A stretch of DNA of 64,000 bases, taken from NCBI GenBank assembly GCA_965655095.1, contig OZ296650.1, positions 68,758,001 to 68,822,000 of the forward strand. The letters run 5' to 3'. The DNA comes from Haplodiscus bocki (lineage: Eukaryota). Both the position numbers and the translations under genes were made by a program. Under the pieces are notes generated by a model. The model searched no databases. It saw only the letters and a program-made list of their open reading frames with translations, and was not told the DNA's origin. Shown piece after piece: positions 4,109 through 24,254 of the stretch (within the stretch, counting starts at the first letter, position 1; each line of letters begins with the position of its first letter).

Positions 4109-4510
4109 ACTAGACTGAGTTATGGTTTCTAAAAACCAAAACAACAAAAATAATACCTACTTGACCGCTTCATTCAGCCTCTTACTCCGTTTTCTCACCT
4201 TCTTACATTTTTTTCTCCCTTTTCTGAATGATATGCATGAATTCAAACATGTTTTTGTGTAATTGTTCAAATAAAAAGTTGAAGTTGGGGAAAAACTTTA
4301 GGATATGTGGAAAAAAGTTTTTTTGTGTGTTATCTTTGACAGAGACAACAACGCAGGCTACTGATGCGGAAAAAATGGACACAACGACGTAATTTTAAGC
4401 TATCCATGACCAAGTATGGTAAAAATCTGGCTGTCGACGTCCACGAGAAAGTAAACGAATCTTCAAAATATCGAAACTTTTAAGCAATTTCGACTACAAA
4501 AACTTTATTT
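4109..4510 (+). repeat. Left terminal inverted repeat of the Polinton (degenerate)
   Basis: gcaggctactgat and ggtaaaaatctggctgtcgacgtcca (~4353-4443) match the reverse complement of ~23913-24006. Confidence 0.75.
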
Positions 4511-4619
4511 CCCTAATGTTTTGTTTAATTTAACAAAATAGATAAAGTGTCTTTAAATCTAAGGGAAAGAGGGCTCCTATAGAGATAGAAGAAGGTTCAT
4601 CCATGTCACCAGAGAGCAT

Positions 4620-5490
4620 GACTAATTTTGAAAAATACTGCTTTTCAAATGCTGAAACAAAGTATAATTGACAAAATGACTAAAAAAATTTGATCTTAGC
4701 CTGTTAAAAAAAATGAAATTAAAAAAACAGTAGCTGAACCAATTTATGATAGCCTGAGCCTAAAACTAGTGAAAATGATAGACTGTGGAGTAAAAAAACA
4801 TTAAAGGTTATAGATCCATTTTAATCGTAATTGACAGTTTTAATAAACAAGGATGGGGCCTTCCTTTGAAAAAAAACACTGCTCAAACTAAAACAATTGA
4901 GTTCTTTATCCTCACTCATATATTTTTTCGAAAGCTAAATCTGGTTGAAATTGATGTTGGAAGGGACTTTTTGTAAAAAAAATTGTCACTAGTTTACTAA
5001 TTAGCAAAAAAACGGTCAAAGTAGTTACAGATCTAAAGGAGCAGTTTTTTGCTAAAATTGTAAACGGAAAAACGCAAGCTACCTAAAGACTCAGTCCTTA
5101 GCAAAAAGAATGCAGATTGTTTTGATGATCAAAAAAAGTATTTGAATGAATTGATAACGATATCCATTCTTAAACAAAAAAGACCTAAATACAAGTATCC
5201 AAAAAACTTAATAAAATTATTCCATACATTGGCATAAGAATCAACCCTAAAGGAACCACAATTGAAAGTAGGAGTTTTGTAAGATCATCTAATTTACGGA
5301 AAAAAAATTTTAAACTGGTTTCTACAGAGTGGAGTTTTGACCTTCACACCAGAACAGAAATTCTTGAAAAAGCTGTACCAAGTTAATGTCTAGAACATTT
5401 TCTTAGAAAAATTAAAGAACTTTTCCTGAAAACGACATTTTTAACAGAGACACAGGGTAATCAAATGTTTGAAAAACTAAATGTAATTTG
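4620..5490 (+). pseudogene. Polinton rve-family integrase
   Basis: Fragments KGYRSILIVIDSFNKQGWGLPLKKNTAQT, NLVEIDVGRDF (TD.G.EF-like), SKGAVF, and a C-terminal WSFDLH.RTEIL...VPS segment typical of Polinton integrases. Confidence 0.8.
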
Positions 5491-21242: not shown

Positions 21243-21640
21243 GTTAATACAAATGTAATAGTGCAGGTTTAAAATCTATTTTCGATCATTTGATTAGATA
21301 AATTTTATATAAACAAAAATTGGCACAGTAGTTGTCATTTCTTCGAGTTTCATATTTAAAAAAAACGCAATTTCTTTTCCTTCTAATGATAAAATCTGAT
21401 AAAAGTTTTCATGGTCCAGATCCAAACGAGCCCAAAAAAAGTCACATGTATCCGCCATCCAACTTGTAGGTCTTGTCGGGCGAAAGTTGACAAATCATTC
21501 TGTTGTTGTATTTTTACTACCTGTCCTGTATATATGTGTATTTAGTCCTAGTTTGGCGATTATTTCTTTTAATTTTAGATTTGATGTTGCTTGATTTTCT
21601 AACTCGGTTTTTTAACAAATTCAGAAGAAAAATTTGACGA
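21243..21640 (-). pseudogene. Adenain-like cysteine protease
   Basis: ATSNLKLKEII...FVNFRPTRPTSW (eroded G.HW motif)...F.SFG.GP...DNYCANFCLYKIYL. Confidence 0.75.
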
Positions 21641-23839
21641 AACTTTTTAACTACTTCTAATTCTCCTTTGATTTTTTAAATTGTAAAGTAATCCCTGAAA
21701 ACTTCGTCTTCTTTTTCAAAATTGTGAAAAAGACCTACATCATAAAGTCTTCGTACTGTAGCTTGAACAGAATTACATATTTCAAATGCTTCCAAATTTG
21801 TTTCTACCTCTTTTCTGAATCTTTTAGGCTCTTCTAAAATTGTTCCTGTTTTCTGATCCTTATAGTTGTTTTTTTAAAAGATTATATTTCATCAATTTTC
21901 TTTTGTTTGTTCTTATTTTTCTTAGTATGGTGATCATGTAAGGAAAAAATGACTTTCTCAAAGTTTTTAGCTGCCAGTTTAACTTTCTCAGACATAATTT
22001 GAAGAAATCACTTCTGCAAAACTCATCATGATTTTTATAACTCATTTATAGGTGGTGCTATTTTAAAAATTGGTCAGCAATTAGGTATCTAATATGACAT
22101 TTTCTATAAAAGCGAAAAAAAAACAAAATTTTTTTACATCTATCTTTCTTATATTAAAGTTTTTATCTAATCATTTAACGGTTTTACTTTTTATCGAGAA
22201 TTTTTTCAGAACTTTTCCCTTACTCTTTCTGTTTTTTTTTGAAGTTTCAGTTAGATTGATTTCTCCATTTGCTTCATAATTTTTTCCTTTGAGCTTTTTA
22301 TCAGCTAAGTGATTGTTTTTATCAAAATCAAGTTCACATTCTTCGTCCATATCCTCATTGGTGTCAACCTTTATCTGTATTGCTTCTTCATAAAATCTTC
22401 TTTGGAATAAAGCATTTTGTCCTTTTTGAGTTTGTGTTCTATAGAGTTGATTCGAAAATTCATCAATAATTTGCTCAATGTTTTTTTTCTGTGTTTTCGG
22501 TTTGTATTTGATTGTTTCTATAAAACCAGTCCTTTATTTATTATCAAAGTTTTATCATTTACTTCCTTACCAGAAAAAGTCTTGGTCTCACTATCTGATT
22601 TCCCAGCATAGCTCACAGAGAGAGCTCTCACATTTGACTGATTTGAAGAGGGTCCTTCGAATTTCGTTTTGTTTTTGCCACCATCTCTATTCTACAGACT
22701 GTTCATATTTTTATTCATTTCTGTGTCTTTTAATTGTACTCTCTGAAAATCTCAACTTCTTGTCTAGTTGGTTTGAGGTAATTTGGATTGAATAATTTGT
22801 TCCACAACTTTTAAAATTGAGTTTTGTTTATACAGTCGTAGTATTGATTCCAAGCCTACTTGTTTGGATTTGTAAGCTGAAACTATGGAAACGTTGGAAA
22901 ACAATTTATGGAAGTAGAATTGAGTTACTTTATTTTCTTTTATATTCATTTGAAAATTGAAAAAAATCTATTTATGATTAGGTTTTTTCACTTCCAAAGA
23001 ATATTACACTGTAAATGGAAACAGAAATTCATGATGAATTTTATATTGAAGAAGAGAATTCTTGTTGCCTCTTTAGAAAGTTTGCACTTAAACTATTCAA
23101 ATTATTCAACTTTAATCAAAAATTGCTCAATGATTGTCAACTATGTAGGAGTATTAGTATGAGAGAATGGGTAAAAAGAGTTTCTTATCTTATTTTTGAA
23201 TTAAAGCCTGATATTAGACAGTAAACTAACTATTTCTTGAAATTAGAAACTGTTTCAGGAACTAATGAAACATTTGATTTACCTAATTGCTCACATGAAT
23301 TCTTCAAAGAAGGGAGACAATTCTAAATTGCTTGAGCCATGACAATTGAGAGTTATGGGTTCAAATTGACATTTTGATCATACGTTTCCATTGTCATATT
23401 TTTCTCTTCTAGATGAAAAAAAGTTGCGAAAGTGTTTCAGTAGGATTATTTTATGTCCTCAGCTAATAAAAGATATTTCTTCGAAAGGAAGTAAATTTGA
23501 TCTTCGAGTATATCTTTTCCACAAAATTAAGACTCGGTATTTTATGAGATTGAAAATTTAAGAATAGGTCCTTAACCATCAATATTGAAGATCTTCTAAT
23601 CTTTTACTTCTTAAGATTTAAACACGCAATATCTAATTTTTAAAAGGAAGAAAACGCTTCTTGTTTGGTCATTATTGTCATTATTTGTTTTTTTAAATGA
23701 GATTTTAACTTCTGTTGGACATCGGTAGCTAGAGTTTTACCATCCTTGGACATGCATAGACAAGTTTTACCTCTGGTGCTAGTCATTTTGTTCGTTTTAT
23801 ATTTGTAGATTCATTGTCAATTTTCCTAATTGAAAGGAA

Positions 23840-24254
23840 AACGAAGAAAAAAATATTTTGTTTTCGAAATTACCAAAAATTGTGCTTTTCGAGTAGATAT
23901 TTTTGCCTACACTTGGACATCGATAGCCAGATTTTTACCATCTTTGGACTTCGATAGTTTCAAATTACCGCCCTTGTGTGCAAATGTTTGCATATCAGTA
24001 GCCTGCTTTTTAGTGCCTAACTACCAAAACATTTATAATACCTCCTTGATCTCGTCATTGAGCACGCTTTTTCCTACGTTTTACATCATTTTAATCTACT
24101 TTTCAATTGGTGTGCATGAATTTACGCAAGTTTTCGTGTAATTTGTTGAATACTTAGATGAAGCAGAGGAAATGTGTTGGAATATCGGGGAAAAGTGAGG
24201 AAAAAGATGAAGGGGATGGAGGTAATGTATGTGTTTTGGTTGTTGTAGACTACT
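23840..24254 (-). repeat. Right terminal inverted repeat of the Polinton, with terminal ~30-bp inverted arms
   Basis: Inner part is the inverted match of the left TIR. Arm ctaactaccaaaacatttataatacctcc (~24017-24045) pairs with ggaggtaatgtatgtgttttggttgttgtag (~24218-24248). Ends in ACTACT. Confidence 0.8.

Follow-up and report, generated by a model that had tools for sequence, protein, structure and literature searches.

Results

The element and its ends

The DNA analysed here, referred to below as the window, is a 64-kb stretch from the genome of Haplodiscus bocki (contig OZ296650.1, positions 68,758,001 to 68,822,000, forward strand). It contains a decayed Polinton that spans positions 4109-24254 and is bounded by a 6-bp target-site duplication (TSD). 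The features of the element, in order along the window, are the following:

4102-4108, no strand: left TSD, cacggga, read in the sequence and one base longer than the right TSD
4109-4362, plus strand: left terminal palindrome (P), oriented as the right P; its AGTAG...CTACT ends are decayed
4363-4562, plus strand: left inner inverted repeat (I), from alignment with the right inner repeat
4794-5485, plus strand: rve integrase remnant (tblastn with intact relatives, E to 2e-10; relative assigned to Pfam rve)
5600-10900, outer limits approximate, plus strand: remnant of a protein-primed PolB (pPolB); tblastn matches to PF03175 relatives at 7698-10256, domains from sister copies and relatives
11023-15166, minus strand: remnants, partly duplicated, of a double jelly-roll major capsid protein (tblastn; relative assigned to PF21738)
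16739-17023, minus strand: packaging ATPase remnant (tblastn; relative assigned to Pox_A32)
21300-21500, minus strand: probable cysteine protease position, placed from sister copies, with no significant match in the window
23174-23558, plus strand: HNH-like nuclease remnant, reading toward the right end
23797-23996, minus strand: right inner inverted repeat (I'); a partial tandem copy, older than it, lies at 23614-23794
23997-24254, plus strand: right P, from alignment and fold
24255-24260, no strand: right TSD, cacgga, read in the sequence

Genes were located with intact relatives from the same genome as queries. Since remnants of integrase, pPolB, capsid and ATPase are all present, the element is a decayed Polinton, as a first-pass annotation of this DNA had proposed; the 6-bp TSD and the AG...CT termini are those by which Polintons are recognised.

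Both ends consist of an imperfect palindrome, P, of about 255-265 nt, followed inward by I, of about 200 nt. Local alignment scores of the two ends were compared with those of 500 dinucleotide shuffles. The inner part of the terminal inverted repeat (TIR), 4328-4562 against 24031-23797, aligns in inverted orientation (68% over 237 nt, E 5e-30), with a z score of 22.4 as opposed to -0.2 in direct orientation. The outer part, 4111-4314 against 23999-24194, aligns in direct orientation (67% over 207 nt, E 1e-20): z is 16.7, a score that none of the 500 shuffles attained, versus 1.7 for the inverted alignment, which 35 shuffles equalled or exceeded. Thus, I and the arms of P are inverted between the two ends and the loop of P is direct. 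The first-pass annotation had recognised both orientations, and the two motif pairs it quoted are present. It had also described the right-end segment as a loop between arms of some 30 bp; the loop is there, but the palindrome is longer and occurs at both ends. The annotation had allowed that a palindromic loop might account for the direct match. This can be rejected because the direct alignment is far better than the inverted one; P is self-complementary at about 62% and its loop is only weakly palindromic. The left P folds no better than shuffles (z -0.2) and the right P folds as a single long imperfect hairpin (z -2.5).

Copies of P in the genome

Five end-sequence searches of the 1.5-Gb genome, followed by inward fetches from the matches, yielded 145 copies of P, of which 127 adjoin an inner repeat on one side, 17 adjoin none, and one has I on both sides. 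Most copies are 255-275 nt long. Their arms pair at 79-87% over the first 40 bases, dropping to about 60% near the loop, and 26 of the 27 copies sampled fold as single-stranded DNA at z < -3 (median -8.3). The middle of P has 29% GC, unlike the very AT-rich hairpin of the poxvirus type. P sits directly beside the TSD and each of its borders carries an AGTAG/CTACT end of the integrase type; the inner borders adjoin the inverted start of I and show no TSD.

The loop occurs in two orientations, and the view that the ends carry an imperfect hairpin in its flip and flop forms is borne out. In support of the first-pass annotation, both isomers are frequent, at ratios of 25:19 at the integrase end and 16:25 at the distal end (from 114 copies, later totals being skewed by the last query). 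The arms of P fall into three subtypes, and the subtype is identical at both ends in 18 of 18 scored pairs. No column of P, out of 270 examined in 80 ends, distinguishes integrase-end from distal-end copies.

Coupling of the two ends

Thirty loci retain both ends; 28 are direct and two inverted. Leaving out two segmental duplicates recognised in the tree, 26 of 28 independent loci are direct (p 3e-6 against 50:50), as are all 17 loci whose TSD copies match at 5-6 of 6 positions, a match expected by chance at about 1.7% without slip. With the integrase end drawn left, the two gene-relative arrangements, A and B, were seen 11 and 15 times, respectively (p 0.56). These counts leave aside C9:56.6M, which is direct and whose left P lacks I, and two pairs that are direct by strand only. 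Of four partner ends sought separately, the one found was direct by strand only.

Inversion of the loop between the arms of one P after insertion, or independent poxvirus-like assortment of flip and flop, would accommodate both isomers at each end as well as the two inverted loci. It predicts at most 50% direct loci, against the proportion seen. As a general cause it is refuted, and we consider it highly improbable; the two exceptions may nonetheless be explicable by it. The first-pass annotation had supposed that the loop became inverted at one end, through a hairpin or panhandle step or through arm-mediated inversion. The second route does not agree with coupled ends, and a hairpin or panhandle step would still be the likeliest cause. 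Because the ends of a copy are coupled, the arrangement must have been produced by the route of replication or integration.

Two other explanations were discarded. An assembly artefact was rejected because the pattern recurs at 28 loci, with ends just 60-85% alike. A heritable inverted subclade was considered since both inverted loci fall in one clade, yet three other members of that clade are direct. The end structure is real, family-wide and strongly non-random, and it belongs to a bona fide Polinton.

Lone copies and junctions

The 17 copies of P that lack I include two in rearranged loci, one ambiguous and one ill-bounded; the remaining 13 represent 11 independent lone P copies. Eight of the 11 have TSDs matching at 5-6 of 6 positions and three at 4 of 6. 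Lone copies with their own 6-bp TSD, together with integrase-type motifs at both borders of P, would suit a scenario in which P is a separate miniature inverted-repeat transposable element moved by the integrase and the Polinton is a compound transposon between two P. This appears improbable: the inner borders of P adjoin the start of I rather than a TSD, lone copies are scattered among terminal ones in the tree with no single burst (bootstrap not converged), and a fixed compound would not yield A and B with coupling.

Contig C3746 carries a tail-to-tail junction, distal-I'-P-I-distal, which is too old for a read artefact because its arms are only 80% identical. Two loci (L139/L027 and L150/L151) have three TSD copies; in these, P, the TSD and 210 or 357 bases of the right flank are repeated at the left end.

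Odd forms of Polinton were also encountered. At L095/L006 (G000:C1:101.50-101.53M) the integrase start and a satellite extend the TIR at both ends, and P is still direct. A self-inverted Polinton with 4.5-kb arms at 98% and one polymerase per arm lies at L088/L089 (G000:C4:88.366-88.386M), and another self-inverted pair at C1:155.345-155.357M.

Other Polintons of the same genome

Seven young Polintons of other families were fetched. The six with both ends in view have plain perfect TIRs (96-100%) and 6-bp TSDs, with no palindrome.

A sister lineage, younger and abundant, has the gene row HNH, integrase, small zinc open reading frame (ORF), pPolB. It ends in a different palindrome, of 281 nt (L178:6159-6439; G000:C4:47237112-47256538), with a self-complementarity of 78%, a fold z of -18 and a very AT-rich middle (14% GC). 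The 40 highest-ranking of 1,686 candidates include nine pairs spaced 17-19.5 kb apart; C305 also has two copies on the same strand, separated by 8.5 kb, which were left out. All nine pairs are inverted; eight have one isomer at both ends and the ninth has the other isomer at both ends. The inner TIR adjoins the palindrome at five ends of three paired loci. The ends are thus coupled in both lineages, in opposite senses (Fisher p 4e-7). A 330-nt variant of the sister palindrome ends another element (L265:1022-1351).

The two lineages share an HNH-like gene. It lies beside the distal end in 49 of 57 distal ends of the family, and a search of 31 stretches from plain-TIR and other relatives did not detect it. 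The genome holds thousands of candidates, and the protein has 13,508 relatives. Neither Pfam nor PHROG provides a name for it, and no solved relative was found by sequence. Its model (pLDDT 95) gives weak matches to beta-beta-alpha-metal nucleases (Z 4.5-5.5; best Foldseek E 0.03), the two best-scoring structure rows (Z 7.3 and 6.3) being unrelated proteins. In the sister lineage the gene is adjacent to the integrase; in the family studied the two lie across the end junction from each other. A circular permutation relative to the sister lineage was entertained as a lead only, the structural genes being in another order.

The polymerase and other genes

The family polymerase comprises a zinc-finger array, a region at the terminal-protein (TP) position, an OTU-like domain, an exonuclease with an endonuclease VII insert, and the palm. 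It is broken in all copies seen. A search with a polymerase fragment recovered more than 100 further copies, none with an intact frame; the family is therefore extinct. In a relative's pPolB, a little-finger-like fold (Z 7.8, root-mean-square deviation 3.3, 93 aligned) and an OTU domain (Z 7.2, root-mean-square deviation 4.0, 109 aligned) could be modelled. The OTU profile matches 15 of 25 family stretches and the TP profile none of the 25. HHalign aligned the last strand of the TP region alone (E 0.003, probability 10%), this region being too diverged to judge, and the ESM Atlas yielded nothing usable for the fragment at that position. The zinc-finger array that opens the polymerase (window 5600-7200) is expanded compared to plain-TIR relatives.

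The endonuclease VII domain was found in 10 of 17 family stretches. As a specific cause of direct ends it was rejected, since all five polymerases of plain-TIR relatives carry it too. No HUH Rep/NS1 protein was named among the scanned fragments of decayed copies.

A putative cysteine protease is suggested by protease-like motifs seen by eye in sister copies and by homology to relatives, with no Pfam or PHROG name. Two paralogous ORFs at window 18700-20300 are common to the element and its relatives. In a plain-TIR sister family (L070, L071, L082, L083) all long Polinton ORFs start at TAAATG, unlike those of L074, L077 and L086. At the six positions before the integrase of the family studied, T, A, A, A, T and G are the commonest bases (37-42 of 55 each), and the motif is exact in 12. 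Relatives with the arm pattern were absent from the viral and metagenome contigs searched; by polymerase, none was found in viral contigs, the polymerases in databases being about 30% identical to that of the family.

Some features of the window touch the element less directly. A 2.13-kb tandem duplication inside it (11754-16010) is 99.1% identical, though the ends of the element are only 68% alike; it is either a recent event or an assembly artefact. Outside the element, window 26286-38850 has nested direct and inverted repeats resembling long terminal repeats (LTRs), with gag-like DUF1759 frames. A near-identical 2,578-bp tandem repeat occupies 54155-64000, and a 31-bp minisatellite at 33944-34378 is partly the same sequence.

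Mechanism

The working model of Polinton replication, with panhandle and protein priming, predicts perfect TIRs. Designating the body of the element as G and reverse complements by a prime, the forms observed are P I G I' P and P' I G I' P'. Our favoured interpretation, to which we give about an even chance, is that the DNA that integrated had a single P, present as two complementary hairpins (flip on one end, flop on the other), and that fill-in then duplicated it. In the free genome the strands of this P would have been separated, each folding at its own end of the molecule, as flip or flop; an equivalent description is an end-joined circle with one nick 3' of each border of P, the two nicks lying on different strands. 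The integrase would join both 3' ends to the target, the joining sites being staggered by 6 bp, and filling of the gaps would then reproduce P at each junction. The outcome, two direct P and a TSD, would be that of a copy-in cointegrate, with P in the role of the insertion sequence and the remaining genome in that of the donor. Direct P copies require opposite isomers at the ends, as supplied by the separated strands of one P; a hairpin-ended molecule that had the same isomer twice and was opened symmetrically would give a perfect TIR. Arrangements A and B would arise equally, either from the cutting of tail-to-tail junctions left by hairpin priming or from a cruciform at P being resolved on one diagonal or the other. 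A lone P with its TSD could be left when direct P copies recombine or when both borders are cut. Flip/flop ends might also arise if P were copied from one end to the other through an I/I' panhandle. Candidate nucleases are the integrase, the endonuclease VII domain of PolB, the HNH-like protein and a helper-virus resolvase.

We infer these steps in the free form from what the genome retains, namely the anatomy of the ends, their coupling, the two arrangements, the lone P copies and one tail-to-tail junction. One further comparison bears on them. In 20 pairs, the loops of P are more alike than the arms of I (0.754 versus 0.689, p 0.001), and their excess over the same-subtype background is 0.051 versus 0.018 (p 0.011). 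This is the expectation of the one-P interpretation because P alone would be copied from one template at insertion.

Several observations weigh against this interpretation. The difference in likeness just mentioned is modest, and I has no end-specific columns either (0 of 209), so that P is not alone in being homogenised. The direct route is not an inevitable consequence of palindromic ends, since the sister lineage is inverted throughout the pairs sampled. Protein priming was probably still possible in the family because the OTU-like domain and the region at the TP position are kept. Sixty-six of the 127 ends with an inner repeat have no partner in the stretches fetched. Of the two inverted exceptions, C7:29.99M has a TSD matching at 4 of 6 positions; C2:5.57M, at 2 of 6, is rearranged, with P, the TSD and 357 bases of the right flank duplicated left of the inverted P. 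The tail-to-tail junction could be a post-insertion fold-back. No head-to-tail junction (distal-I'-P-I-integrase) was found among the 145 P or in a junction search, an absence that counts because such a junction would be the direct trace of a one-junction circle. RVE integrases are not known to act on a junction of this kind. Finally, the mechanism is read from fossils of a dead family of which no free DNA has been seen.

A second possibility, which explains nearly as much as the one-P interpretation and which we rate as unlikely rather than remote, is excision from concatemers. A closed hairpin genome would yield head-to-head and tail-to-tail concatemers with all P on one strand, and the integrase would cut outside two successive P. 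A and B would then alternate, a double cut would release lone P, a missed cut would leave a junction, and direct or inverted ends would be a heritable state of the lineage. One substrate would in this way cover the direct P, the near 1:1 ratio, the lone P and the tail-to-tail junction, and the contrast with the sister lineage suits a heritable state. Nonetheless, the scheme offers no reason why P copies should be more alike than I arms, and it predicts equal isomers in the inverted sister lineage, where eight of nine pairs have the same one; furthermore, the two inverted loci of the family belong to the same clade as direct ones.

Less likely still, in our judgement, is ordinary protein-primed linear replication with direct P inherited from one founding rearrangement. 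Inversion of the body between I and I' would produce A and B, and lone P would be the equivalent of solo LTRs. The full Polinton gene set and a pPolB of standard layout speak for such a scheme, which needs no new chemistry, and the two loci with three TSD copies show ectopic copying between direct P. However, in replication of the adenovirus type, panhandle repair should restore perfect TIRs, yet direct loops persist across three arm subtypes. In addition, both ends change together in all scored pairs, and every subtype would need an inversion close to equilibrium.

Discussion

The family has the gene set, AG...CT ends, 6-bp TSD and inner TIR of canonical Polintons/Mavericks, unlike which its outer ~265 bp are direct rather than inverted. 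Kapitonov and Jurka are said to have proposed a racket model for Polintons. Parvovirus rolling-hairpin ends occur as flip and flop hairpins and use fold-back priming. The isomerism is like that of the family; simple rolling-hairpin copying would give many inverted pairs.

The canonical pPolB layout is given as TP-vOTU-exo-palm (PMC11071308). Terminal palindromes, with hairpin priming proposed, are described for endogenous virophages of Halocafeteria seosinensis (subtypes 1, 2, 5 and 6) and for a Polinton-like virus (PLV), subtype 4 (bioRxiv 10.64898/2026.07.28.741278). As in our family, the palindrome lies at the tip of the TIR, beside the TSD, in an element with an rve integrase. Those palindromes are short (52 nt in subtype 5), were found with at most four mismatches and mostly occur without pPolB; P is about 265 nt long, mismatch-rich and accompanied by pPolB, and the ends of a copy are coupled opposite isomers. 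Isomers ("flip") are not mentioned in the main text of that preprint.

Poxvirus telomeres resemble P in being imperfect terminal hairpins with two complementary isomers. Poxvirus one-junction plasmids are reported to resolve to hairpin-ended linear DNA, and vaccinia concatemer junctions to be resolved at random (PMC8956199); random resolution would leave half of the copies direct and half inverted. Poxvirus isomers are expected to be scrambled between ends, unlike those of the family, and poxviruses do not integrate. No correctly oriented resolution site was found, nor a conserved T-run/YAAAW motif of the poxvirus resolution type within 180 nt of P, although the site of a divergent helper would escape such a search; near 200 nt from P such a motif is present in 13 of 127 ends. 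A 9-mer of a vaccinia hairpin oligonucleotide (Table 1 of PMC8956199) recurs in one of the arm subtypes, at 28 and 23 of the 145 arms; this was dismissed as chance, since the 9-mer is oriented away from the loop and the Shope fibroma sequence lacks it.

Copy-in cointegration is described as producing a TSD and copies in direct orientation, which can recombine to leave a lone copy (PMC6952201). Cointegrates and translocatable units of the IS26 family (PMC6952201, PMC4196232) share with our family a small, direct, two-ended module around a passenger, an outer TSD, and a lone module with TSD. Here, by contrast, the module is a noncoding palindrome, the enzyme is in the passenger, and the system is eukaryotic with an rve integrase, so that the likeness is one of analogy only. 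For the end structure, two further sources (10.1101/2022.05.25.493380 and PMC11296320) offer an analogy at most.

Terminal palindromes are themselves known from protist virophages. In the literature covered, which excludes most subscription papers, Repbase and bioRxiv supplements, descriptions of coupled isomers, or of direct terminal palindromes in Polintons, were not met.

A broader proposal is put forward tentatively, as possible rather than probable: some Polintons with poxvirus-type gene starts may have replicated as hairpin-ended DNA, perhaps in the factory of a poxvirus-like helper; the family studied would have integrated as a copy-in cointegrate via one hairpin junction, direct and inverted ends would be fossils of two resolution routes, and the shared HNH-like nuclease would be a candidate resolvase.

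We know of no direct observation of Polinton exit, replication and re-integration. Obligately coupled flip/flop ends preserve, in the host genome, a record of how the free intermediate was arranged, and duplication of one P on insertion would constitute a route outside the standard model of Polinton copying. The paired-end loop orientation, lone palindromes and junction types could serve as a computational read-out for Polintons, virophages and PLVs with imperfect terminal palindromes, a signal that consensus-based repeat libraries would erase. The finding also links integrating preplasmiviruses to viruses with hairpin telomeres.

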